Shown here: piece by piece, positions 869-59,698 of the stretch
How positions within the stretch are numbered: the stretch's first letter is position 1
Layout: every line of letters begins with the position of its first letter
Assembly: GCA_964016885.1 (NCBI GenBank)
Contig: OZ024741.1
Span: 376,154,001-376,218,000, forward strand
Source of the DNA: Eledone cirrhosa
Taxonomy: Eukaryota
Direction of reading: 5' to 3'
DNA length: 64,000 bases
The notes under the pieces: model-generated
The model's input: only the letters and a program-made list of their open reading frames with translations
The model's database searches: none
What the model was told of the DNA's origin: nothing
Program-made: the position numbers and the translations under genes

Positions 869-941
<73 letters not shown>

Positions 942-946
<5 letters not shown>

Positions 947-3900
947 ATAATAATAAAGTTGAAGACTAAAATCCAAAGAGGGCTCGATAAGGATAAATAT
1001 ATATCAAATATATAAGAACCGTAGAGCAAATATTTATTAAAATAACAGATTAAAGTTTAAGCAAAGAATCGCTGCTAACGGAATCTTCTGAAACTAACAA
1101 AGTCAATCTGTAAACGCAGAACTGGATATTTCAAAAAACGTTGCAACCGGAGGAAGACAGGAAGACGATACTTTGGTTCGTGGAAACGTTCGCTGACAAA
1201 GAACGGGGAAAAACGAATAATACGTCATTAATAGAAGCGGTGAAAAACAATTACGCGCAAAGACAGAACCACGTTTATGGTATAAAAGAGGTCGTAGACT
1301 AATGTTCTCTTAGGTGGTGCATAGAGACGTTCTCTGGCAATGAACGAAAAAACGAAGGTAATACGTCATATGTGGAGCGTGGAGAACAATAGCACGCAAA
1401 GACAAAACCACGTAAATGGTATAGCAGAAGTCGTAGACTAAAATTCTAACTAGGAGACCAAATGAATCTCCGCTACAGAGTTAAAAACAAGTAAATAAGT
1501 ACAATACAGAAGTAATAGAAATAAATAAATACATACACGCAAACAAATACATACATACACAAGCATACGCAAAACCTTACCATAGGTATACAAAACCACG
1601 CACATATAAATATGTTTGTGTGTGTATGCGTGTATACAAATAAATAAATAATTATATAAACGTATATAAATAAATAAATACGTATATAACAAGCGCACAC
1701 ACATACCTACATATAAATACACGAATGTTCGGAGACGTAGGTCAACTAAAACAAGAAGTACACAATACACACACCCACCATACGTACGAACCCGCATACT
1801 CACACAGACGCAAAACTCCCGTATACACATAGCCAAACCCTATGTACCAGAATATATAAAATTATACGCCAAAACAATCAAATATACGTACGAGAAGGTA
1901 TACGTACCTTCACAAAACAAACGGGTAATACATACTTACCTATGCAAATAAGTAAAGGAATAAACAAAACATATACTTTGCTCCCACATCAGGACGTAAA
2001 ATATCCACGTATAGATCGTACTATCCGTTAGGGTATAAAGTGGGGCTGTAATACAGGAAAGTTTTGTGCAATTTATGTTTACAAGCCGAAATTGCCGCAG
2101 ATTTTTTGTTTAAGATGTGGTCTGAGGCGTAGAGTATTTCCAGGGCCTCAGCGGCGCAGAGGTCACATGGTCTTTTATTTCCATTATACGATCTAGCCCT
2201 AGCTAGGATCTCCCAGTGTAACTTATATTGGGTGTGGTTGTCTTTTAGACTCCAGATATAAGCTGAAAGTGACGTCATATTCCTTCTTAGAGGGTAACGA
2301 AAAGAATGGGTATGCATGTAAAGTCGCTGCTTGAAACTATTGGCGGTTAACCCTATGTAGGCCCTACGGGACGTGGGTGTTACAACCTTACATTTGTAGA
2401 CAATGTTACTAGAGAGGCATCTCGGATATGGGGCAATCAGCCCGATTCCTACAATTACAGTTAGTACTAACTACAGGGTTGCACGTGTTCCTACGGCTAG
2501 GTAGTTTAGCTAAATTTGAAGCTGTGATGTTATGTGCAAGGTTAGGAGTCGTAGAGTAAAAAATTTTAATAGTATTTCTATTAAAAACTTTACTATATTT
2601 ATGTGTAGGGGGAAAATGCTTCGTAATAAGGGAAAGAAAGATCTTAGATAATGGTGTGGCCACCTCCATATTATATGGTGGGTTATACCAACAAATGCGA
2701 CGGGATCTATTTCTTCTAGGTCTATTTTCGTACTCAGTATAAGCTACCTTATTGACAAATCCACTTCGAGCAAGAGCTTCATTGTAATAAGTGGAATGGT
2801 CGTTGAAAATACGCTCGTTGGTGGAAAGACGGGAAAGCCTCAACGAAACGTTTCTTACCAGGTTCTTGGTTATGCTAGCAGGATGGTTGGAATGCTTACT
2901 TATGTAATTAAGCGTATCATTCGGCTTTCTATACGGGTAATACAACCCATTCAATGAATTGAGGGTAACGTCGAGGTAATTAACGACCGAGAGATTGGGC
3001 TCAACCTGTATAGAGAGGTTGAAGCCTTTAAAGAAGGCTGTGAGTTCTTTTCTGAACCTGTCGCAAGCACGAGGTCCGCACTTAGTCATGGTCAAAAGAC
3101 CATCGTCACGGTACAAGCCACCGCCCGCGTTGGGGAATTCGTCCTTGATAGAGAAAAGAAAGAAAAGGCCAATAAGATCAGTAACCTCCCCAGAGTCACT
3201 GGCGCCCATACTCACGTCGAATGGGGTACTATTGGATTTTTTAATCCAAATAGAGTCGTCGAAATTAATCACCGACTTTCGGGCATTGAGGATGACATCG
3301 ACTTCGAAATCCTTAACCACTGTGAGTGTTTTAGCGAAATTGATAGCTCTAAGGAGAAGTGGTAAAGTGATGGAGGAGTAGTAATTGTTGATGTCGAATT
3401 GGATAAAACGGCAATGTTCCTTGTTACATATGCCGTTGAACCAATCAATCACCGCGAAACAATTGTTCCACAGTGCAAGAGAGGCCAAACTTCTAATTTG
3501 AGGTATAATTCTATCAAGAATCGTTTTACTAAGTCTACCTAAATCGGACTTCGTAGGGTTAATAATCCGAATAGAGGGGTTTTTTCGGAAAATTGGATTT
3601 GTGATCCTTCAGGGTAAAGTGGGGAGAAATAGGTTCCAAAGGTTCGGTCCGGTCCAGGATGTTGAGATCAGATGTGATTTTAAACCCAGCATCGTTGATT
3701 TCATTGATGACGCACCGATTAGTTTTATGGTAATCCTTAGTTATAGCATTATGTAGTAGTTGATGGTAAGTACTGCGCTCCACTTGATATAGGTTGCCAG
3801 TTTTGTGGGAATGGACGTGCACAGCGTTAGAATCCTTAATAGAACGAATTCTTGCTGGAAGGAATTGCTCCTATTCCGAAATTTGATGCTCCGAATGAGT

Positions 3901-4720
3901 TCCAAGACATCATTTTCGAAGGGTAGCAATGCTGGGTTACACGGAGGGTTATTATAGGTTTTAAATCCAAACTTATCCTGTTTGTTGTCTGCTTTTCGCG
4001 GATTATCGAAATAAAAGGCGCGCCAACGCAACCTTTTAATAAACGCGTCTGTTTTCTGTATCAGGAGTTTTAGGTATGTTTTCCTGCTAGGTATGGGTAT
4101 GTTCTTTGTAGAAATATTCAGATGTTGTTTCTGCATGATGAATATAAGTCAGTAGAGTGCTCAACCGAGGGAGCCAAATAGTAATGATAATAAATTTGAA
4201 GACTAAAATCCAAAGAGGGCTCGATAAGGTTAAATATATATCAAATATATAAGAACCGTAGAGCAAATATTTATTAAAATAACAGATTAAAGTTTAAGCA
4301 AAGAATCGCTGCTTTCACCCTTAACGGGTATACCATTTACGTGGTTTTGTCTTTGCGTGCTATTGTTCTCCACGCTCCACATATGACGTATTATCTTCGT
4401 TTTTTCGTTCATTGCCAGAGAACGTCTCTATGCACCACCTAAGAGAACATTAGTCTACGACCTCTTTTATACCATAAACGTGGTTCTGTCTTTGCGCGTA
4501 ATTGTTTTTCACCGCTCCTATTAATGACGTTTATTCGTTTTTTCCCGTTCTTTGTCAGCGAACGTTTCCACGAACCAAAGTATCGTCTTTCTGTCTTCCT
4601 CCGGTTGCAACGTTTTTTGAAATATCCAGTTCTGCGTTTACAGATTGACTTTGTTAGTTTCAGAAGATTCCGTTAGCAGCGATTCTTTGCTTAAACTTTA
4701 ATCTGTTATTTTAATAAATA
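942..4720 (-). mobile_element. Penelope-like retroelement, family H1 (Hydra-clade-like), near full length, with 3' pLTR, partial direct 5' pLTR and inverted pLTR
   Basis: RT and GIY-YIG ORF remnants. 942-1075 is repeated directly at 4180-4328, 4329-4720 is the reverse complement of about 1029-1421, and both ends abut (TA)n. Confidence 0.93.
2021..4136 (-). pseudogene. Frameshifted PLE reverse transcriptase / GIY-YIG endonuclease ORF
   Basis: Motifs TLKDHK, FIQFDINNYYSSI, FDVSMGASDSGEV, GLYRDDGL, NYLDVTL, SNHP, WYNPPY, CNCRNRADCP linker, CDLC; split over several frames. Confidence 0.92.
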
Positions 4721-4916: not shown

Positions 4917-4996
4917 GCTGTCTGAAGATCTAATTCTTTCCATTGGAAATTCTCTGGATTTCCAATCTTTTGATTAGTGAAACCGTCGGTAACAGC
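4917..4996 (+). ncRNA. Type I hammerhead ribozyme, canonical core
   Basis: Stem I GCTGT/ACAGC; CTGAAGA; stem II CTAATT/GATTAG extended by ATTGGAAAT/ATTTCCAAT; GAAA; stem III ACCGTCGGT; GUA site. Confidence 0.85.
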
Positions 4997-6763: not shown

Positions 6764-9408
6764 TAAACACAGAGACACAGAAAACAGGTAATGACAGTAG
6801 CACAGAAATAAGGGAAGGTAATAGGATTGAAAGGAGAAGGGAGACAATGGACAGAGAAAATAACCAAGACGAACACATAGACACACAAAATAGAGTAGAT
6901 AATGACAATGAGCCAGAGGAAAGAGACAGGAGTAATAATGAGAGACTTAGAAACAAACATGAGGCTGTTTGTGGAAATAGAAATAGAAACAACACAACCA
7001 ACAATAACAATAGTACTAGTACACATAATGTAGCAGCCTGGAACTCTACTTTTTATAATCCCTCCGATAAGTCGTCCGACCTGCGACGAGTCCACGCCAC
7101 GACTATAGCTTTTAACAAAGGCTCGCAATTGCTGTCGCAGGTCGATGAACAAACAGAAGCACAATTTAGTATAGCTAGATCTAAACTTAGAAATATTATA
7201 GAACAGTATAGCAAGAAATATAATAGAATGGAGGCCCAGCAACTGGGAGAAAAATCTGCAAATGGCTTGCGTAAGCTCATGCAACGCTCGCGTAATGGAG
7301 AGATAGCATGCTTTCCAACAGACAAGTCTGGCAGAATGTCGGTTGACAGTCTGCCAAACTACATCCAGGCAATGCAACCCTACATCACTAACACAAGAGA
7401 AGTAACAGCACAAGAGCATGACGATAGAGAAAAAGCCCCCAATGCCCATATGATGATGTGGACAAATATAATGCAGCCCAACAAAAGGACTGCCAACAAC
7501 TTCCAGGCCTGGAACAATGACGTGCCAGCGTTGTTTGGGCTTCGAAAAGACCATAAAACGATCAGTGACCCTGTCACAGGACCACCAACACGGCCAGTCT
7601 GTGGAGCTAATATTGCTAGTAACTACAGACTGTCCTACTTCCTCTCCCTGATCATACGCCTCATCATTGAAATGTCCCCAGATGTATGTGACAGCACGGA
7701 GGACCTCCTCAGCAGAATCGGCGAGAGTAACCGATCTAGGGACCTAACAAACTGCATAATAGGTAGTATGGATGGTGTGTCCCTGTATCCATCTATTTAC
7801 GTGGATTTTGCTGTGGAGAAATGCGTAGAAATGATCAGTGAGAGCAATGTTGAATTCCGTGGGATTGATACCAGTGAGCTGGGACTCCTACTTAAACTTA
7901 CCTATAGTAATAATTATCTAGACACATATGACCTTAGCAACCTGTGCCCTACAAGACCAGCAAGAGGCAGACCACCTACCATTACCTCAATGGCCAAGAA
8001 AACCCACACAGATAGATGGAACGGGTGGACCAGAGCCATACGGACCCTCGAAAACCACGATGAACTAAAGAAAGTGATTGCACATGCGGTGGTGCCCAGC
8101 ATAAAATTAACCCTTAAGGAACATATGTTCAAATTGAATGAAAAAACATATGCCCAAGAGGAGGGCGCAGCCATTGGTGTTAGCATTGCAGGCGACATAG
8201 CTAACCTATTCATGGTATGGTGAGACAGTAGAATTAAACGTAAACTTAAAGAACAATTAGAAGACACCTTAACCCTGATAATGTACTCCCGCTACATCGT
8301 AGTTAAAACACCCCCACTAGAGAACAGTCAAGAATTAGAGAAAAACACAATGGAAAGCATCCAGCAAATAGCTAACTCCATCCACCAGAGTATTAGAGTT
8401 ACTATAGACTACCCAATCAAACACCCCAACCATCGATTACCTGTACTAGACACAAAGTTCTGGTTAGATACCATTAATAACAAAACACAAATCCTCCATT
8501 CCCATTATGCCAAACCCATGACTTCCAAATATCTGATCCACCGAAACTCAGCTGTTTCGGACCATACCAAAATCAACATACTGATTGCGGATTTGGTACG
8601 GGTGATGAGAAACGTGTCCCGCATGTGCAACCCCGAAGAACTAGAGAGACACATACAACACTTCATCCACCGTATGCAGTTCTCTGGTTACAATCAGAGA
8701 GATAAAATCAGAGTGTATAGAGGAGCCAGAACCAAATGGTGAAAAAATGGTAAATAATGACACAAATGGGACCTGGCCCTTGTATAGGAGCAAATTTTGG
8801 AATAGAATAGAAAGAACTAGGAACAAGGCTAATAGAATAAACTCATGGTATGATAGCAATAAATATCAGAGTGTAATCTTCATCGATACAACCCCTAGAG
8901 GTGAATTAGCTTACAAATTTAGAAGGGCCCTCGATAAACATAAACTCAATATTAAGATAGTAGAAAGACCAGGTACCTCCATAAAACACTTATTAGGAAG
9001 ACATACCCTTTTCAAAGACCTCCTTGTATCGATAAGAAATGTATAATCTGTAAATTAAGCCTCCATATTAACTGTAAAACTAGAAATGTAGTATATAGTA
9101 TAAGATGTACTGAAGGACAATGTAGAGATCAAAATATAGTGTACATAGGTGAGACAGCTCGTAGTATATGGGAACGGATAAATGAACACTGGCGAGACCT
9201 TCAAGATAGTAAAGAATCATCTGTACTCTACCAACATGCTAAAATAGAACATAAGGGTAAATTAGAGAACATAGAAATAAAAATAGAATCTACACACAGA
9301 AAAGACGCAATGTTTAGACAAATCACAGAGGCAATAAACATAAATGAACTCCAACCAAAATTAAATAGAAAACGTGAGTGGACCAGCAACATCACAACTT
9401 ACAATTAA
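6764..9408 (+). pseudogene. Disrupted PLE RT / GIY-YIG ORF
   Basis: [66 protein letters not shown]...VYIGETARS..ERINEH; contains stops and frameshifts, and the catalytic YxDD is deleted (YSRY-IVV). Confidence 0.88.
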
Positions 9409-15208: not shown

Positions 15209-15566
15209 AGATCAAAAGATGGTTAAAGGAGTTCCATATATTTTATTATGCGCATTTCAAAAACAAACATAATCAAGCAATAATATTTGTGTTTTCATCA
15301 GATAAAACAGGAGAACATGATATGAAGGCTAAAAAACACTTGTTGATAGTGCAGTTTTAAATCAACATATGAAAAGTGGTTTTAGATTGATGTGTGATAT
15401 TGGGAAAAATATTTTATTTAGAGAGGGGGGGGGGGGGGGATATATGGAACTCCTTTAACCATCTTTTGATCTTATATTATGCATACTCCAGTCCCACAAC
15501 CTGTAGAGTGCTTCTTATCCGATATCTGCATTGCTTTATTGTACTACAATAAAACTCACCTCCTAC

Positions 15567-19395: not shown

Positions 19396-19440
19396 CTTAC
19401 TGGTTCCTATATATATATATATATAGTTTTAATATAGATG

Positions 19441-19491
19441 AGGTTCTACAGGACTAGAACTGTTTCATTCTTTAGAAATCATCAGGAATCT
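19441..19491 (-). ncRNA. Type I hammerhead ribozyme
   Basis: Inverted copy of 24000-24050 with one stem I mismatch. Confidence 0.75.
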
Positions 19492-19638
19492 GGGTATCAA
19501 AAAATAAACATGGTATTTATAGGTCTCTACAAGTGGTAGGAGAGGGTGGGGAGTGGGATGGGTGTAGGTCATTGGTTGATAGAAAAGGGAATTCATTAAA
19601 AGCTATAGTTTATTTTTATTAATTTTTGCTTTTAGAGT

Positions 19639-20082
19639 AATTGCCTAAATAAGGAAGCATGCCCACTTGAAAACAAATGCCTCACAAATGATATCGTATA
19701 CAAATGCGATGTCATCTCAGGCACCGAGGATTGCAACAAAACTTATATCGGCATGACCTCCAACAACTTTAAGACCCGTTGGTATGTCCATACCCACTCC
19801 TTCAGAGGACCGGACAAATCAAATCAGACAACACTCGCCTCCTACGTTTGGGACCTCAAAAGGAACTCCACCCCCTTCACGCTTAAATGGAAAATACTCC
19901 AGAAAGCGTGCTCTTACAACGGATGACACAAGGGCTCCGACCTTTGTATTTCAGAGAGCTACGAAATTTTATTCGCCAAGGGCCCGCTACTGAACAAACT
20001 CTATGAACACTGCCCGAACAGCATGCACAAGAACTTTGCAACTTTCAAACACTTTAAGCCAGTGTTAAAGCCCGATGGCTAA
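19639..20082 (+). pseudogene. PLE GIY-YIG endonuclease remnant
   Basis: NCLNKEACPLENKCLTNDIVYKCDV...TYIGMTSNNFKTRWYVH..TTLASYVWDLK; one in-frame stop. Confidence 0.88.
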
Positions 20083-29237: not shown

Positions 29238-29743
29238 TCGGATTGGCAGTATCGGTAGAGCGTCGGACACTACGCTTTTTGGCATAGAGTTATGGCCCTT
29301 CACATTCTGAATTCAAATCCCACCGACGTTAGTTTTACCTTGTGCCTAAAATATAAACAATTATTACGGGGTCGATAAAATAAAGTACCAGTAATGTACT
29401 GGGATAATTGCTGGCCTTGTGCCAAAAAGTAGAAACAATTATTACGGGGTCGATGAATTGGCAGTATCGGTAGAGGGTTGGACGCCATGCTTTCTAGCAT
29501 AGTTACGTCCCTTTACAGTCTGAGTTCAAATCCCGCCGAGGTTAACTTTGCCTTTCATCCTTACGGGGTCTATAAAATAAAGTACCAGTAATCTACTGGT
29601 TAATTGCTGGCCTTGTGCCTAAAGTAGAAACAATTATCACGGGATCGATAAAATAAAGAACCAGTAATGCACTGGTGTTGATTTAATCGACTTTCCCCAC
29701 TTCCTTAATTGCTGGCCTTGTGCCTATAGTAGAAATGATTATT
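29238..29743 (+). mobile_element. Cluster of tRNA-derived SINEs (MetaSINE/OR-like)
   Basis: A-box-like TGGCAGTATCGG, B-box GAGTTCAAATCC, central gcctttcatccttacggggtcgataaaataaagtaccag, tail ggccttgtgcc...agaaacaattatt. Confidence 0.85.
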
Positions 29744-31627: not shown

Positions 31628-32261
31628 AAGGAAAATATCGCCCTACATGGCTGAATACAATAAATGTAATCTGAGTTTTTCGAATATTAATAATCGTTTC
31701 TACTTTTGGCACAAGGCCAGCAATTACCCGGTACATTACTGGTACTTTATTTTATCGACCCCGTAAGGATGAAAGGCAAAGTTAACCATGGCGGGATTTG
31801 AACTCAGACCATAAAGGGCTGTAACTCTTTGCTGCAAAGCATGGCGTCCGACCCACTACATTCGATTCGTTTGCAATTTCGATTCGTTTGCAATTATGCA
31901 AACAAGCCTCAATTTTATAACCATGTCATTAGAATGAACACTTCATTCTTGCTCTTGTGTTGGCATGTGAACAGAACTGCAGACACAAATGTTTCTGGGT
32001 ATCACCCTTCATCAGTACAGGTCACTCTTCACCTGCCAAACTGTCAGAGCTAGTGAAAATATATGCTATTTTCAAAAAAAAACACAGTGACTGATCGGCC
32101 TGATTTGCATATTAGCAGGCTGGCTGATCAGCTGTTCATATGCCAACACAAGAGCAAGAATGAAGTGTTCGTTCTAGTGACATGGCTATAAAATTTAGGG
32201 TTGTTTGCATAATTGCAAACGAATCGAATATTATCATTAATATTCGAAAAGCTCAGATTAC

Positions 32262-33432: not shown

Positions 33433-33637
33433 ATATATATATAATGAATGAGTAATTTGTTTTGTTGATTATACAACAAAGTTAATTTACAACAGATTAG
33501 AAGCACTCAACGGTATATTTTCCGGAGTATCATTAATATCAATAATATTAATAAATGGAAAATATCTTTATAAAAGCATATTTTTTTTATTATACGTATT
33601 TCAGGGTACAAATATTTTAGTACGCTTTCGTCCGTAT

Positions 33638-37560: not shown

Positions 37561-38870
37561 TTCTTCTTCTTCTTCTTCTTCTTCTTCTTCTTCTTCTTCT
37601 TGAGAGGATCGTGTCCTCAAACATTCCTTTCAGCGGGTCCTGTCAGAAGCAACCGTCTTTAACTGAACAGGCTGGATACCCAAGCGAGACCAGTCAAGCT
37701 CTTGGATATTATCCAATCACCTCACTCTGGGTCTACCCCTGGGTTTGCTGCCGGTTGGTTTAGCCTGTAAAATCTGTCCAGTGATTCTTTCCTGAGACGT
37801 TCAGGACGCATGCCCATAGTATAGGAGCTGTGATCTATCAATTCGGAGAAGTAGCGGCTCTACCTGGTGCGGCGCTGCGCTCTGATCTCCGAGCTGCGTA
37901 CTCTAACGAGTAACGTTACGCCAAAGTCCATTCGGAGTAAACACATCCCGGCCGCTTCTATTCTCGATCGTATTCCTTTGGTCAACACCCAAGGTTCATG
38001 ACCTTAGGTAAGGGTTGGCAGCAATACCGAATTGAAGATAGCGAGTTTCGCTTTTACGCCTACCCGCTTCTTCTGATTATTGAATGCTGAAGCTTGCGCA
38101 TTACTGCACCAGCTCCTGCAATTCTCTCACTTAATTCAGCCTCCTGCCCTCCATCACTCGTGAACATGACCCCGAGATACGTAACCCTCTCTTCCTGCTT
38201 CAATGGAACTTCCTTAAGAGGACGAGTGTCGCAGTTTTCGTCGCACTGATTTTCTTTCCAGCTATGTAGCACTCGGCATCAAACCTATCGAGTGCACATT
38301 GGTGGTCACTTCCTATTAAGTTAAGTAATTCCAGCAGACTGATTTTACACTCACCAGTCATGATACCATTTCCAACCCAGCTGTGCATGTCAATCCTGTT
38401 TCTCTAAATAATGGTTTCTTATATAGGCACAAGGCCAGCAATTTTGGGGGTGCGGAAAGTCGATTAAAACGACCCCAGTACATTACTGGTACTTTATTTT
38501 ATCGACCCCGTAAGGATGAAAGGCAAAGTTAACCTCGGAGGGATTTGAACTCAGATCATAAAGGGCCGTAACTCTATGCTGCAAAGATAATGAACAGGAG
38601 AGATGACAGTACGCAGTCGTGGTGGAGTCCGACTCCTACATTGAATGGTTTCGATGTATCACCATTTACCCGAACGCAAATACTTGGGCATTCGTATAGA
38701 GACAATATGGCAGCAAGAAGCTAACCATCGATCCCATAGTCCTGCAGAAACTTCCAAGGCAGATCGCGAGGAACATGGTTATACGCATTTCGTTCTTGGC
38801 AATACTCCTCTGATTTCTCGAAGACCTGTCACAGCGTGAATATTTAGTCGGCTGTGCTGCGTCCGCAGTG
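37561..38870 (-). mobile_element. Degenerate RTE-clade LINE 3' portion with (AAG)n tail, interrupted by a SINE
   Basis: QCALDRF..EC...G.KIS..KT, VTYLGVMFTSDG.Q.AE...RI..A.AVM, LPTLT.GHE.WV motifs. Confidence 0.78.
38408..38585 (-). mobile_element. tRNA-derived SINE
   Basis: Same consensus as 29455. Confidence 0.85.
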
Positions 38871-42427: not shown

Positions 42428-43210
42428 CATATATACATATATATATAATATAGATACGGTAATATATAATTGTTTCTACTTTAGGCACAAGGCCAGCAAT
42501 CACCCAGAGTGCATATACGCAAGTGTATAACTTAGTAGAAGAATGTATTATAAAACTTTTGTCAGAATAATTAAACTTCAAATATTTGTTTAAATGACAT
42601 TGCAAACATCACACGTACATACACCCCAAAGGGACCGCGCACCACAAACACCTATCATATTGTACTGGAATATACTGGCATATATTTTACAGGTTGTAGA
42701 CATTATCTGATAACAGACCTTATACTCTTGTATAGAGTGATCAGAACTGTTTCATACCCCAAAAGCGACAATTATGAGATAGAAAGATAGACAGATAAAG
42801 ATAGATAAGATATCTATCTATCTCTATCTATATATCTATCTATCTATCTATCTATCTATCTGTATATATATAGAGAGAGAGAGCGGGAGGGTGAGAAAGA
42901 GAGAGAGAGAACCAATATATATGCATGAAGTGTTATATGCATGTGAGAACTCTTTGCACTGGCAAAGCTTGTGGTGAAGGATTTCATTTCGAAAGTTTAA
43001 TCAATAATTTCATTTTACATTCATTAAAATCAATTCCAATAACTTTCTTTTATATTTTCTTTTATCATTATAAAATCTATATCGGGATATTATATATCCC
43101 CAAAAGGATTTTCTACAATGTGACTAGTTGCAGAATATATGAGGAAATTCTTATGAATGTATATGATTGATATAATATTTACACAAAATGCAGAAATATA
43201 TATATATATA

Positions 43211-43951
43211 TACGTAGATACGTATATGTGTACAGGCGTACAGTAGTATGTATATATATACATACATGCACACATATATATATATGTACGTATGGGTTTA
43301 CCGAACATTTATTATAATGTTGGTTTGTTTGTTACAAACAAACGAACATTATAATAAATGTTCGGTAAACACATACGTACACATATATATATATGTGTGC
43401 ATGTATGTATATATATACACATATTACTGTACGTCTGTACACGTATATGTATGTACGTATAAATACTTATATTTAGGTATCAGCCGTACTAAGAGTGAGA
43501 AATGAAATTTCGTTTCATTCTTTTCCATTTATCGTTTTCGGTGCGCCCGGCCGACTAACTCACTGGATATGCAAATTAGGCTGCTCAGCCGTTAATATGC
43601 ATAGGGAAAGTATATACTTTCAAACGTTCAATCATCTGACAGAAAGGTATACGATGCTGACGATAGCTAATAAGCTTGAAACTAGTACATCGTTCCTGTG
43701 TCAGTGTTGAACAAAAGGGCGACGATGGTTGCCGAGCACTGTACGGCGTAATTCGGGCTGTTTGTTTACAAACAATCCGAACATTATAATAAATGTTCGG
43801 TAAACCCATACGTACATATACATATGTGTGTATGTATGTATATATATATACATACTACTGTACGTCTGTACACATATATGTATGTACGTATAAATACTTA
43901 TATTTAGGTATCAGCCGTACTAAGTGTGAGAAATGAAATTTCGTTTCAATC

Positions 43952-43957
<6 letters not shown>
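43211..43957 (+). mobile_element. Retrozyme-like 435-nt unit, ~1.4x tandem with 5' inverted arm
   Basis: gaacattataataaatgttcggtaaac at 43344 and 43779; 43211-43330 is inverted; one HHR. Confidence 0.8.
43651..43693 (+). ncRNA. Minimal type I hammerhead ribozyme, canonical core
   Basis: ACGATG/CATCGT; CTGACGA; AGCT(AATA)AGCT; GAAA; palindromic ACTAGT; GUA. Confidence 0.9.
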
Positions 43958-43999
<42 letters not shown>

Positions 44000-49952: not shown

Positions 49953-50099
49953 GTAACTATGTATGTATGTATGTATGTATGCATGTATGTATGTATGGAT
50001 GTATGGATGTATATACATACAGAGTGGTTGGAAACAAATTGTCAATGACTTTAATTATGATTGGTCGATTTTCAAGAAACATGTTTTATTTCGAATATT

Positions 50100-50515
50100 A
50101 TAATGGTTTCTATTATAGGCACACGGCCAGCAACCTTGGGGGAGGGGAAACTCGATTAAATCGACCCCAGTGCATGACTGGTACTTTATTTTATCGACCC
50201 GTAAGGATGAAAGGCAAAGCTAAACTCGGTGGGATTTGAATCCAGATCATAAAGGGCCATAACTCTATGCTGCAAACATGGCGTTCGACACTCTACCAAT
50301 ACTGCCAATCCACCGCCAATTTCGAATATTAAAATTGTTTCTACTTTTGGCCCAAGGCTAGCAATTACCCAGTGTATTACTGGTACTTTATTTTATCGAC
50401 CCTGTAAGGATGAAAGGCAAAGTTAACCTCGGCGGGATTTGAACTCAGATCATAAAGGTAGGTAACTCTATGCTTCAAAGATGGTCTCCGACCTTCTACC
50501 GATGCTGCTAATCCA
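50100..50515 (-). mobile_element. Two tandem tRNA-derived SINEs
   Basis: SINE consensus twice (about 50100-50318 and 50330-50515). Confidence 0.85.
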
Positions 50516-50991
50516 CAATGATAGAGGTACAGTGTTAAGATTTTACATAGGCACCAGTGTCGTCTACCAGTGTTTATAAAGATTTGGGTATATCCTTGAA
50601 TGATTTCATGAGGAATTCAAGCGGTATGCTGGTCACTACATGACAAATGCGTTCCTCTCGTTGAGTTGGTTTTAAATTATAAACTTATTCCTTCACCAAC
50701 CCTAAAGGAAAACATCGAATGGCGTTAATTCTGGGCTTTTCGTTGGCCATTTATGTGTATCTCGACGACCCAGTCAATATCCTGGATAGTGGGCATCAAG
50801 GCACTGGCGCAAGACAGTGCGCGCAAAATGAGGAGGGGACTCATCTTTCATGCATATGAGGTCATTTATTTATGTTGTCCCAAGTGGTGATATTAACAAG
50901 AGTTATAAGTATGTGTTAAGAGGGAGTTTCTTTACACCCACACTCTATGTATGTATATATATATATACACACACATACATACACACAGACA

Positions 50992-51147
<156 letters not shown>

Positions 51148-51322
51148 TATAATAGATGCATTGTTTATAATGCGCCGAAACTTCCGTGACCTGCAGTTAA
51201 CTACTGACGAAGAGAGACTGTCCACCTCTTGTTTGTGTTTCCCTACCTTCTAACAGCCGTTATCAGTAACAACACAGCCCCTCCTCTCATCCATGTTTAT
51301 ATATATACATATATATATATAT

Positions 51323-51954
51323 ATGAAAGACGTAAAATAGGTACTAAGACATAACATATATATTTGCTAGCATGGGTATACATCTGTATACATATGTTGG
51401 TAGATATACTAATTCTCTATATTTATCTCCAAATTATTTGTTGAGAGAAACTTGCCAGAATTTACTGCTATGGTTCATGGTAGTAGTTAGGCTCTTGTCA
51501 TAGTACCACCCCCACTCCTCACTGATTAACCCCAGTGTCACGTGATTGATTCTTTAGAATTTGCCACTGACCAAGTAGGCAGTGAATTTTTTCAGTGCCC
51601 TGGAATTTAGTCCCCGCTAGCTTTATTCCATCCACTGAATTATTATTTTTATATGGGTTCCTAGTGTCCGCGCATTGCCTGGGAACTTAACTGAGAATAG
51701 ACTCCCTGATGACGTAAGGACTTCTCTATAGTTACATTGCGTAACTATATTTATTCCCTTAGAGAAACTAATTAGTTGGAGTGAAAATTTTAGTAAGTAA
51801 GTTGATATTTAATTTTTAAAATTTTCTTATTTTACGTCTTTCATATAATTGTTCTGCATCCCCCTGCATAGAACCACAAAGGTACTAAGACATAACATAT
51901 ATATTTGCTAGCATGGGTATACATCTGTATACATATGTTGGTAGATATACTAAT

Positions 51955-51959
<5 letters not shown>
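51323..51959 (+). mobile_element. Retrozyme-like 541-nt unit, 1.14x tandem with short inverted 5' stub
   Basis: 78-bp direct repeat at 51341 and 51882; 51322-51339 is inverted at 51828-51845. Confidence 0.78.
51701..51782 (+). ncRNA. Type I hammerhead ribozyme, canonical core
   Basis: ACTCC/GGAGT; CTGATGA; TAAGG/CCTTA plus TATAGTTAC/GTAACTATA; GAAA; palindromic ACTAATTAGT; GUU. Confidence 0.83.
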
Positions 51960-51985
<26 letters not shown>

Positions 51986-52426: not shown

Positions 52427-52742
52427 CGGTGGATTGGCAGTACCGGTAGAGAGTCGGACACCATGCTTTGCAGCATAGAGTTACGTCACTTCATAATATG
52501 AGTTCAAACCCCGCCGAGGTTATCTTTGCCTTTCATCCTTAATTATTACGGGGTCGATGAATTGGCAGTATCGGTAGAGGGTTGGACGCCATGCTTTCTA
52601 GCATAGTTACGTCCCGTTACAGTCTGAGTTCAAATCCCGCTGAGGTTAACTTTGCCTTTCATCCTTACGGGGTCGAAAAAATAAAGCACCAGTAATGCAC
52701 TGGGTAATTGCTGACCTTGTGCCAAAAGCAGAAACAATTATA
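52427..52742 (+). mobile_element. tRNA-derived SINE dimer
   Basis: Two SINE heads with the same junction as at 29437-29470. Confidence 0.82.
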
Positions 52743-55507: not shown

Positions 55508-56069
55508 ATATATATATGTGTGTGTGTGTGTGTGCCTGTGTTTATACATACATGCACACATACAGGCACATACATTTACAAATATAGAATTACACACTCT
55601 AAAATATCTGCAAACATATTCACGTACATGCATATAGTTGCACGCACACACATATGCAGTCATAGTCATATTTCTATAAAAGGCGAACGTCTGACTGTCT
55701 GTCTGTGCCTGGAAACTATGCAGATGTGTGAATTGTTCTTAAATAAGTATTTTTATTTTAATAACTCAATGTTAAAATAGAACAATAGAAGTATCAATTT
55801 TCCTATATTTTTTGCCATAAAATTATGAATTCATCTTCTTCGGAACATTCAAAACACGTATAAAACCAAAATTTATGATGTTGTTTTTTCAGAAAAAAAT
55901 ATATTTACAACCAAAATATCTTAAAACAAAGAACATTCAAAAAGCAAACAATAATCAACTCTATAGGGACACTTTATATACTACACTTGTTTATTCAGTT
56001 TATCTACTGGAATACCAGAAATTGAATTATGGTTTGCTTACGCATTTTCATAGACAAAATAATTGTCTA

Positions 56070-56235
56070 TAATTTTGGGACAAGGCCAGCAATTAACCCA
56101 GTGCATTACTAGCACTTTATTTTATCGACCCCGTAAGGATGAAAGACAAAGTTAACCTCGGCATGAATTGAACCCAGAACATAACTCTATGCTGCGAAGC
56201 ATATTGTCCGACGCTTTACCGATACTGTCAACCAC
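56070..56235 (-). mobile_element. tRNA-derived SINE
   Basis: SINE consensus. Confidence 0.82.
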
Positions 56236-56297
56236 CACCCTTTTATAGACATAATAATGTTGAAGAGGCACCATAATGAAGTGTTTGTACCGATTTC

Positions 56298-59200
56298 AAA
56301 ATTTATTCTGTTATTTTAATAAATATTTGCTCTATGGTTCTTATATATTTGATATATATTTATCCTTATCGAGCCCTCTTTGGATTTTAGTCTTCAAATT
56401 TATTATTATTACTATTTGGCTCCCTCGGTTGAGCATCTATTGACTTATATTCATCATGCAGAAACAACATCTGAATATTTCTACAAAGAACATACCCGTA
56501 CCAAGCAGGAAAACATGCCTAAAACTCCCGATACAGAAAACAGACGCGTTCATTAAAAGGTTGCGTTGGCGTGCCTTTTATTTCGATAATCAGCGAAAAG
56601 CAGACAACAAACAGGATAAATTTGGGTTTAAAACCTATAATAACCCTCCGTGTAACCAAGCATTGCTACCCTTCGAAAATGATGTCTTGCAACTCATACG
56701 GAGTATCACATTTCGGAATAGGAGCAATTCCTTCCAGCAGGACCTGAAGAATAGAATTCGTTATATTAAGGATTCTAATGCCGTGCACGTCCCCTCCGAC
56801 AAAACTGGCAACCTATATCACGTGGAGCACAGTACTTACCATCAACTACTACATACTGCTGTAACTAAGGATTACCGTAAAACTAATCGGTGCGTCATCA
56901 ATGAACTCAACGATGCTGGGTTTAAAATCACCTCTGATCTCAACATCCTGGACCGGACGAACCTCTGGACCCTATTTCTCCCCACTTTACCCTGAAGGAT
57001 CACAAATCCAATTTTCCGAACAACCCCTCTATTCGGCTTATTAACTCTACGACGTCCGATTTAGGTAGACTTAGTAAAAGCATTCTTGATAGAATTATAC
57101 CTGAAATTAGAAGTTTGGCCTCTCTTGCACTGTGGAACAATTCTTTCGCGGTGATTGATTGGTTCAACGGCATATGCAACAAGGAACATTGCCGTTTTAT
57201 CCAATTCGACATCAACAATTACTACTCCTCCATCACTTTACCACTTCTCCTTAGAGCTATCAATTTCGCTAACACACTCACAGTGGTTAAGGATTTCGAA
57301 GTTGATGTCATCCTCAATGCCCGTAAGTCGGTGATTAATTTCGACGACTCTATTTGGATTAAAAAATCTAATAGTCCCCCATTCGACGTGAGTATGGGCG
57401 CCAGCGATTCTGCGGAGGTTACTGATCTTATCGGCCTTTTCCTTCTTTTCTCTACCAAGAACGAATTCCCCAACGTGAGCGGTGGTTTGTACCGTGATGA
57501 TGGTCTTTTGACCATGACTAAGTGCGGCCCACGTGCTTGCGCCAGGTTCAGAAAAGAACTCAAATGGCTTCAACCTCTCTATACAGATTGAGGCCAACCT
57601 CTCCGTCGTTAATTACCTCGACGTTACCCTCAATTTATCGAATGGCTTGTATTACCCGTATAGAAAGCCGAATGATACGCTTAATTACATAAGTAAGCAT
57701 TCCAACCATCCTGCCAGCATAACCAAGAACCTGGTAAGAAACGTTTCTTTGAGGCTTTCCCGTCTATCTACTAACGAGCATATTTTCAACGACCATTCCA
57801 CATATTAAAATGAAGCTCTTGCTCCGAGTGGGTTTGTCGATAAGGTAGCATATACAGAGTACTAGAATAGACCTAGAAGAAATAGATCCCGACGCATTAT
57901 ATGGTATAACCCACCATATAATATGGAGGTGGCCACACCATTAGCTAAGATCTTTCTATCACTTATTACGATGCATTTTCCCCGTACACATAAATATAGT
58001 AACATTTTTAATAGAAATACTATTAAAATTTCTTACTCTACGACTCCTAACCTTGCACATAACATCACAGCTTCTAATTTAGCTAAACTATTTAGCCGTA
58101 GAAACACGTGCAACCCTGTAGTTAGTACTAACTGTAATTGTAGGAATCGGGTTGATTGCCCCATATCCGGGAAATACCTCTCTAGTAACATTGTCTACAA
58201 ATGTCAGGTTGAAACACCTACATAGGGTTAACCGCCAATAGTTTCAAGCAGCGTCTTTACATGCATACCCATTCTTTTCGTTACCCTCTAAGAAGGAATA
58301 TGACGTCACAGCTTATATCTGGAGTCTAAAAGACAACCACACCCAATATAAGTTTCACTGGGAGATCCTAGATAGGGCTAGATCGTATAACGGAAATAAA
58401 AGACCATATGACCTCTGCGCCGCTGAGGCCCTGGAAATACTCTACACCACAGACCCCATATTAAACAAAAAATCTGAGGCAATTTCGGCTTGTAAACATA
58501 CATTGCACAAAACCTTTCTGTATTACAGCCCCACATTATACCCTAACGGATAGTACGATCTATACGCGGATATTTTACGTCTTGATGTAGTAGCTAAGTG
58601 TATGTTATGTTTATACCATTACTTATTTGCACAGGTAAATATATATTACCTGTTTGTTTTGTGAAGGCACGTATACTTTCTCGTACGTATATTTGATTGT
58701 ATGTTATGGCGTATATTTTATATATTCTGGTACATATGCTTTTGGTTATGTGAATGCGGGAGTTTTGCGTCTGTGTGAGTATGGGGGTTCGTACGTATGT
58801 AGGGTGTGTTTACATGTGTACTTCGTGTTTTGGTTGACGTACGACTCCGAACATTTGTGTATTTACATGTAGGTATGTGTGTGCGCTTGTTATATACGTA
58901 TTTATTTATTTATATACGTTTATTTAATTTTTTGTGTACACGTACACACCAACACACATATTTATATGTGCGTGTATTTGCATACCTATGGCGAGTGTTT
59001 TCGCGTATGCTTGTGTATGTACGTATATGGATGTGTGTATGTATTTATTTAATTTCAATTACCTGTGTATTTTATTTACTTTATTCTTAACTCTGAAGCG
59101 GACAATCATTCGGTTTCCTAGTTAGAATTTTAGTCTACCACTTCAATTATACCATTTACGTGGTTTTGTCTTTGCGTGCAATTGTTCTCCACTCTCCACA

Positions 59201-59638
59201 TATGACGTATTATGTTCGTTTTTCCGTTCATTGCCAGAGAACGTCTCTATGAACCACCTAAGAGAATATTAGTCTACGACTTCTTTTATACCATAAACGT
59301 GGTTCTGTCTTTGCGTGTAATTGTTTTTCACCGCTCTAAATAATGACGTATTATATTCGTTTTTTCCCGTTCTTTGCCAGGGAACGTTTCCACGAACCAA
59401 AGTATCGTCTTCCTGTCTTCCTCCGGTTGCAACGTTTTTTTAAATATTCACTTGTGCGTCCACAGATTGACTTTGTTAGTTTCAAAAGATCCCGTTAAGG
59501 GGAAAGCAGCGATTCTTTGCTTAAACTTTAATCTGTTATTTAACAAATATTTGCTCTACGGTTCTTATATATTTGATATATATTTATCCTTATTGAGCCC
59601 TCTTTGGATTTTAGTCTTCAAATTTATTATTATTACTA
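56298..59638 (+). mobile_element. Penelope-like retroelement, family H1, near full length with direct pLTR
   Basis: 56307-56414 is repeated at 59533-59639; colinear with the reverse complement of 942-4328; ends in (TA)n. Confidence 0.93.
56456..58553 (+). pseudogene. Frameshifted PLE RT / GIY-YIG ORF
   Basis: MQKQHLNISTKNIP, RLRWRA, DKTGNLY, FDINNYYSSI, GLYRDDGL, WYNPPY, CNCRNRVDCP, IVYKC. Confidence 0.92.
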
Positions 59639-59698
59639 TATATATATATATACAATGATATTAAATAAATGGAAACTATATTTATAAAACCATATTTA

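Follow-up and report, generated by a model that had tools for sequence, protein, structure and literature searches.

The locus examined here consists of 1.15 copies of a 541-nt non-coding unit and a 20-bp inverted stub, set between (TA)n runs in a 64,000-nt stretch of DNA, which we call the window. The unit (51339-51879, plus strand) is marked out by an 80-bp direct repeat that is exact over its whole length and recurs at a spacing of 541 nt. Copy 1 of this terminal redundancy lies at 51339-51418 (+), with a predicted long hairpin inside it (51359-51407), and copy 2 lies at 51880-51959 (+). The stub (51320-51339, minus strand) is the exact reverse complement of 51828-51847 (+). Its outer five letters are shared with the (TA)n microsatellite of the left flank (51298-51324), the target site, and its inner letter is common to the repeat. 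The right flank (51960-51985) continues with six additional CT units, followed by (AT)7. No target-site duplication (TSD) is readable within the flanking microsatellite. The element shows no LTR and, judged by eye, no PBS or PPT.

This anatomy is far beyond chance. Among 2,000 dinucleotide shuffles of the unit, the longest stub-like match was 15 letters, reached once, against 20 in the real sequence. A sequence-only reading of the locus had described a non-coding unit of 541 nt bracketed by a direct repeat, with an inverted stub at the 5' end that copies sequence about 50 nt downstream of a ribozyme cleavage site. These features were borne out by the repeat spacing, by a longest stop-free frame of 61 codons within 51339-51959, and by the source of the stub, 51-70 nt past the predicted cleavage site; the repeat measures 80 bp instead of 78, and the stub 20 bp instead of 18. 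The same reading attributed the stub to a minimal fold-back. That claim failed: the stub copies 51828-51847 and not the adjacent 51340-51360, which excludes a local fold-back, and it ends at a recurrent terminus of other copies.

The ribozyme is a type I hammerhead (HHR) at 51701-51782 (+), identified by descriptor search and folding. Stem I (51701-05/51778-82) closes three helices around the core motifs CUGAUGA (51706-12) and GAAA (51764-67), in agreement with the type I pattern of CUGANGA, GAAA and U16.1-H17. Stem II (51715-19/51757-61) is followed by a 7x7 internal loop and a 9-bp extension (51727-35/51741-49), and stem III (51767-76) is a 10-nt palindrome; both the extended stem II and the palindromic stem III had been noticed before. 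Self-cleavage is predicted between 51777 and 51778, after GUU, from the hammerhead consensus. The motif was missed by a first motif search, and the descriptor was loosened after the motif had been seen, to at most two mismatches at the stem II base. In this form it matched the motif and one other site in the window, with no matches in 30 shuffled windows or in 2,000 element shuffles.

To call this hammerhead canonical, as the sequence-only reading did, is an overstatement. Stem II opens with C.A and G.G mismatches in this copy, the cleavage triplet is GUU, the monomer fold is predicted to be inactive, and none of the 13 Rfam matches to the element, taken at E values as high as 10, is a hammerhead family; Rfam likewise misses other HHR-like motifs in the window. 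The G.G mismatch involves 51762, which is G here and C in essentially all other copies: at all depth in public sequencing runs X1 (77 contigs) and X4 (14 contigs), and in 163/164 and 190/201 reads of run X9. The majority C restores a pair with G51714, after the C.A mismatch. A G-C pair at the stem II base after one extra nucleotide is described as highly conserved (PMC4209133).

The plus strand of the unit is predicted to be strongly structured. Its circular minimum free energy is -144.8, compared with -106.3 ± 5.1 in shuffles, none of 40 being as low, and with -116.7 for the minus strand. The corresponding z scores of the plus strand are -6.2 (linear) and -7.5 (circular). Among 10 control stretches from the window, one scored below the element, a palindromic HHR locus at 33461; of the others, one stood at -3.0 and eight above -1.4.

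In the predicted monomer fold, the hammerhead core is paired to the 3' half of stem III at a probability of 0.89, and stem III itself forms at 0.03. The active monomer fold lies 3.8 kcal/mol above the minimum, or 2.5 kcal/mol with the majority letter at 51762. A double hammerhead reaches -45.2 kcal/mol versus -40.8 kcal/mol for two misfolded monomers, and is thus favored by 4.4 kcal/mol (7.0 with the majority letter); the predicted dimer minimum departs from it solely by A14-U17 pairing. As these energy models have the monomer misfold and favor the double hammerhead, cleavage is predicted to depend on an HHR dimer. This copy, with one HHR and a broken stem II base pair, would probably be a poor cleaver.

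Part of the element occurs in 8 of 11 public runs, with a best share of 0.43. Other copies were compared at 80% likeness in runs X1, X4, X6 and X9, leaving aside X2, X3, X5, X7, X8, X10 and X11, of which X5, X7 and X8 are small-share runs. In X1, 2,949 of 16,285,364 contigs match the element: 566 at 99% identity or more, 922 at 95-99%, 1,140 at 90-95% and 321 lower. X9 contributes 7,775 matching reads out of 12,467,656, X4 (another organism label) 49 matches and X6 (a third organism label) 2. The family is therefore multi-copy by these run matches, as non-LTR retrozymes are, and no second copy lies elsewhere in the 64,000-nt window.

Overlapping sequences from other copies cover the unit: 51342-455, 51524-640, 51603-761, 51722-833 and 51809-944 in X1, and 51423-555 in X4. 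Two of the 18 records listed (X1 51809-51944 and X6 51784-51944) bridge 51879/80 with at least 31 letters on each side. Among the same 18, an X1 record (51342-51455, with 13 differences) bridges 51418/19. Three X4 records cross it too, extending only 21-27 letters beyond. Because these records overlap around the unit and across both repeat junctions, we regard the 541-nt unit as family-wide. The junction 51881/51882, on whose recurrence in other copies the sequence-only reading had staked its mechanism, was seen. Its expectation of circular permutation fits the other-copy records, but a full dimer, array or circle appears in no single record, and none of the 18 records listed spans the whole stretch.

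Two signals in X9 were rejected as evidence. Five 'go-back' joints of 539-551 nt (28 reads, none at 541) were discarded as a sign of tandem units: the shorter side of such a joint can stop within the repeat, so that the reads may represent indel variants placed on the other repeat copy. X9 molecule ends were discarded as element ends: all six listed fall on AATT words and therefore represent library cuts.

Two recurrent ends are indicated downstream of the hammerhead. Site A, at 51847 (+70 from the predicted cleavage), is the last letter of the stub source, so that the outer end of the stub coincides with the recurrent 3' end of other copies. Behind 51847, 22 X1 contigs from other copies continue as (TA)n, and the summed X1 depth, which is not a copy number, falls from 725,175 (51829-51) to 238,498 and then 85,579 in the following bins. 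Site B corresponds to the end of repeat copy 2 (+182 from cleavage), where this insertion has its own 3' end at 51959, and to the region 51419-26 (= 51960-67). Here one X4 contig continues as (AT)n at 51426, the equivalent of 51967, and X1 depth drops from 154,273 to 21,106 across 51437. Among the loose ends listed, site B as a recurrent end thus comprises one contig, the depth drop and this copy. We consider site A well supported and site B weakly supported. The two sites are 112 nt apart, and each falls in a predicted open stretch directly 3' of a long hairpin. Unpaired probabilities are 0.76 for site A, a 13-nt stretch set against 14-nt windows, and 0.60 for site B, whose openness is equalled by 10% of windows; the mean is 0.39.

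At 23 of the 40 sites listed for X1, the letter of this copy is the minority one; some of these sites fall within the repeat (51380/51921, 51417, 51893 and 51897). Were its roughly 4% divergence to have arisen after insertion, the probability of identical repeats would be 0.002. Both repeats share the minority letters and are identical, and they therefore stem from one template lineage in a recent event. A circle copied 1.15-fold and a homogeneous linear multimer fit identical repeats equally. We read the locus as a genuine and young copy, with slight damage, of an abundant ribozyme element that is non-autonomous and probably of Penelope-like element (PLE) type.

We consider it probable that the locus is a copy of a high-copy, non-autonomous PLE of the non-LTR retrozyme kind. 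Membership among the retrozymes is likely, judging from the non-coding unit, the type I HHR and the high copy number, with 1.15 units at the locus. The element shares with metazoan non-LTR retrozymes (PMC7229834; bioRxiv 10.64898/2026.07.22.740005) a non-coding unit, one type I HHR, a GC content below 50%, a strongly self-paired predicted circle, high copy number and co-occurrence with PLEs, and these retrozymes include dispersed monomeric copies, as here. The unit length is within the 51-972 bp range of the preprint (bioRxiv 10.64898/2026.07.22.740005), although it exceeds the 170-400 nt circles of invertebrate retrozymes and is known here from DNA alone. With one HHR, the locus does not qualify as 'active' under the preprint's definition of two consecutive HHR units. 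An inverted stub and two fixed ends, as indicated for the element, are unmentioned for metazoan retrozymes in the available parts of the preprint and of PMC7229834. Further retrozyme sources were compared (PMC7761336, PMC6765202).

The remaining features resemble the pLTRs of EN+ PLEs (PMC4209133, PMC8557442, PMC11167929): a type I HHR with palindromic helix III, an extra nucleotide after A9, a dimer requirement (predicted here), an inverted 5'-truncated copy, two ends downstream of the HHR (the second weakly supported here) and an AT-rich or microsatellite target. At the element an inverted 5'-truncated copy adjoins the 5' end, and the (TA)n setting matches such a target. PLE HHRs have been shown to carry a palindromic helix III and to function as dimers (PMC4209133). 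In contrast to EN+ PLEs, the element has no RT-EN ORF, and in contrast to the minimal HHRs of PLEs its stem II is much longer and an extra unpaired A precedes G12. An autonomous PLE was rejected as an identity for the element, which holds no RT + GIY-YIG ORF. Non-autonomous Chlamys PLEs such as MRC1 (PMC8557442) are also non-coding PLE derivatives with pLTR-like redundancy, and were once mistaken for LTR elements; they are green-algal, mostly without a canonical HHR, and were compared by description only. Newt and axolotl satellite-2 type repeats (PMC7229834) share the weak palindromic helix III and dimer cleavage (predicted here), and one axolotl family has a mismatch at the helix II base. 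They form tandem arrays of 330-350 nt with demonstrated RNA, whereas the element amounts to 1.15 units known from DNA.

In the mechanism that we propose, the plus strand would be transcribed by read-through from multi-unit loci, and two HHRs would pair via the palindromic stem III and cut after 51777. An autonomous PLE would supply, in trans, an RT/GIY-YIG protein that binds the ligated RNA circle, or an uncut multimer, and cuts both strands of a (TA)n tract. Reverse transcription would then be primed at AU-rich open sites within the RNA. At the first DNA end, a start at site B (51959) would copy 621 nt, once round the unit plus 80 nt. At the second DNA end, a start at site A (51847) would copy 20 nt, and a joint with 1-nt microhomology would leave the stub. 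The PLE 'tail' would have its counterpart in the 112-nt interval from A to B.

Several steps have precedents. PLEs are known for inverted 5'-truncated copies, tails at one end and a microsatellite bias (PMC8557442). A purified PLE protein cuts both strands of AT-rich DNA and begins reverse transcription within the RNA, at two sites that lie 3' of the HHR and whose interval equals the genomic tail (PMC11167929). HHR cleavage was dispensable in vitro in the same system (PMC11167929), which weakens the claim of a required circle. The interval of 112 nt, compared with a published tail of 30-40 nt, is a counterpoint to the comparison with EN+ PLEs. The start sites of purified PLE had no homology to the cut DNA (PMC11167929), unlike this element, which shows short (TA)/AUAU microhomology. 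The window yielded no partner RT: 110 of 111 stop-free frames were scanned for an RT domain and gave none, and Pfam gave no matches on 25 start-codon ORFs. As for shared pLTR sequence, a blastn comparison of the element with the remaining window held only microsatellite-like matches in its best 25 rows.

A more specific version of the proposal is, in our view, conceivable but doubtful. The locus would then be the frozen record of a protein-free ribozyme circle written into DNA by PLE machinery, through rolling-circle reverse transcription of the 541-nt circRNA from a fixed start, a second start 112 nt upstream that yielded the stub, and telomerase-like CT reiteration at the distal start. An unrelated HHR element of the window, at 43198-43957, shares the (CT)n(AT)n end and the arrangement with two sites, which would hint at a general rule. 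If true, it would supply junction-level evidence for who mobilises animal retrozymes.

Among other explanations, we considered that the locus is a truncated autonomous PLE, that is, a partial tandem of 80-bp and 541-bp 3' fragments in which the 'unit' is an accident of insertion. Inserted PLEs frequently form partial tandems that include inverted, truncated copies (PMC8557442), and remnants of a GIY-YIG nuclease occur in the window. In addition, X1 depth is 7,000 at 51461-51506 compared with 100,000-700,000 elsewhere, so that part is missing or different in most relatives. Against this, continuity across 51418/19 is found family-wide (X1 51342-51455 and three X4 records), and an X4 record (51423-51555) bridges the low-depth part. 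There is no frame above 61 codons, and the main X9 loose end before 51520, which matches 51489-51519 at about 19/30 letters by eye, appears to be a diverged relative and not new sequence. We therefore regard a truncated autonomous PLE as unlikely.

We give still less credit to amplification at the DNA level, in which an old HHR repeat had its 80-bp end doubled by slippage or repair with no RNA step. The region is indeed packed with microsatellites and nested repeats, and satellite-style amplification has been discussed for retrozymes (bioRxiv 10.64898/2026.07.22.740005). Such an origin leaves unexplained why the stub starts at a recurrent family terminus, why the plus strand is so structured (z -7.5), why the stem II pair is conserved across copies and why an unrelated element at 43198-43957 has the same layout. 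An LTR-type mini-element (a TRIM or plant-style LTR retrozyme) with 80-bp LTRs would account for two identical direct repeats around a non-coding interior but is scarcely credible, as the repeats lack a TG start and CA end, the HHR is type I and outside them, no TSD is visible, an inverted stub is present and many copies end at 51847 within the interior. Plant LTR retrozymes carry a type III HHR in LTRs of about 350 bp, with a 4-bp TSD, a PBS and a PPT (PMC7761336); the element has no type III HHR in LTRs, short TSD or fixed termini of the plant retrozyme or TRIM kind.

The window itself offers further comparison for the preferred PLE-type reading. The unrelated HHR element (43198-43957, or 43198-43990 overall) has a 433-nt unit, about 200 bp of redundancy (92.6% over 203 bp) and a core at 43657. 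Its large inverted 5' copy starts at the proximal site, about 54 nt short of the sense end, and its sense 3' end is followed by (CT)n(AT)n. In both this element and the 541-nt element the word ATTTATC follows the distal end in the unit, and their distal ends coincide exactly with two of the window's six (CT)5+(AT)3+ runs. An inverted segment was also present in five of the eight other HHR regions checked in the window, in keeping with the earlier view that this anatomy is common to its HHR elements.

GIY-YIG endonuclease remnants of PLE type lie at 8956-9405 (+) and 19636-19923 (+), with Pfam E values of 1.7e-4 and 3.5e-3, both under the curated cut-off, and with Atlas eukaryotic GIY-YIG clusters at 0.95-0.97. 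In the 8956-9405 remnant, a C-x4-C-x2-C motif precedes the nuclease, and little sequence follows the nuclease before the remnant stops; the motif resembles a linker assigned to Neptune-type elements (PMC11167929). Together, the GIY-YIG remnants, the HHR-like motifs, the inverted segments and the two-site layout support PLE activity in this genome. Directly adjoining the 19636-19923 remnant, at 19425-19640, is a member of the 24006 HHR family in inverted orientation.

HHR repeats and PLE pLTRs are widespread and well described, and the family alone is ordinary; its value lies in the junctions. On the grounds of co-occurrence and phylogeny, retrozyme papers suggest that the mobilising partner is a PLE, and they call the mechanism unresolved (bioRxiv 10.64898/2026.07.22.740005, PMC7229834, PMC7761336). 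With its PLE-type stub and two recurrent ends, a dispersed copy of 1.15 units opens the PLE hypothesis to a direct test in an assembled genome, and the family has enough copies for statistics on ends. A literature search, which covered few subscription papers and neither Repbase nor Dfam, returned no description of the element family or of retrozyme twin-priming; the family may already be catalogued in Repbase or Dfam.

Some variants among the other copies deserve mention. One X4 contig skips 74 nt of the low-depth part (51445-51520), which suggests a shorter variant of the unit, of about 467 nt, in another organism. Stem II varies on its 5' strand in loose ends of X4 and X9, and 51758 shows a C-to-A change; the two look compensatory, although they were not observed together on one record. 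Within the unit, splice-like words occur at 51793-51871: GTAAGT begins at 51793 and a second time at 51797, and TAG at 51871 closes a pyrimidine tract. They could frame an intron of 75-79 nt, and AG also stands directly before stem I. PLE pLTRs can contain introns. In AT-rich DNA, such words may arise by chance.

Sequence searches beyond the element gave little. Rfam returned no match at gathering score in the window (13 weak, unrelated ones locally), no tRNA genes were found in it, and a sigma-70 scan, irrelevant here, was below chance. A 14-letter pattern hit 118 stretches of metagenome contigs, all by chance (longest alignments 15-33 letters), and longer patterns gave none in viral contigs or prokaryote genomes. 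Pfam had no match in the open frames of a 3.4-kb inverted-orientation repeat pair (894-4295 and 56298-59686, 91% identity).

The window is AT-rich and animal-like, may be cephalopod-like by the appearance of its SINE-like repeats, and is crowded with (TA)n, (CA)n and dispersed repeats. Additional motifs resembling a type I HHR lie at 4922, 10792, 24006, 33644 and 60576 on the plus strand and at 15301, 21183, 32015, 32645, 59749, 60111 and 61091 on the minus strand. This dozen represents several families; in many, stem III is palindromic and stem II is preceded by a one-by-one mismatch. They end tens of nucleotides downstream in (TA)n, and none reaches the Rfam score. In two families an octamer, ATGCAAAT, precedes the HHR core by about 90 nt (at 43569-43576 in one, and ahead of 32015 on the minus strand in the other); it may resemble the snRNA-type promoters of newt satellite 2. 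An abundant SINE-like repeat family flanks the element on both sides (50088-50516 and 52427-52742), with more copies at 29240-29743, 31678-31859, 38408-38588 and 56058-56239.
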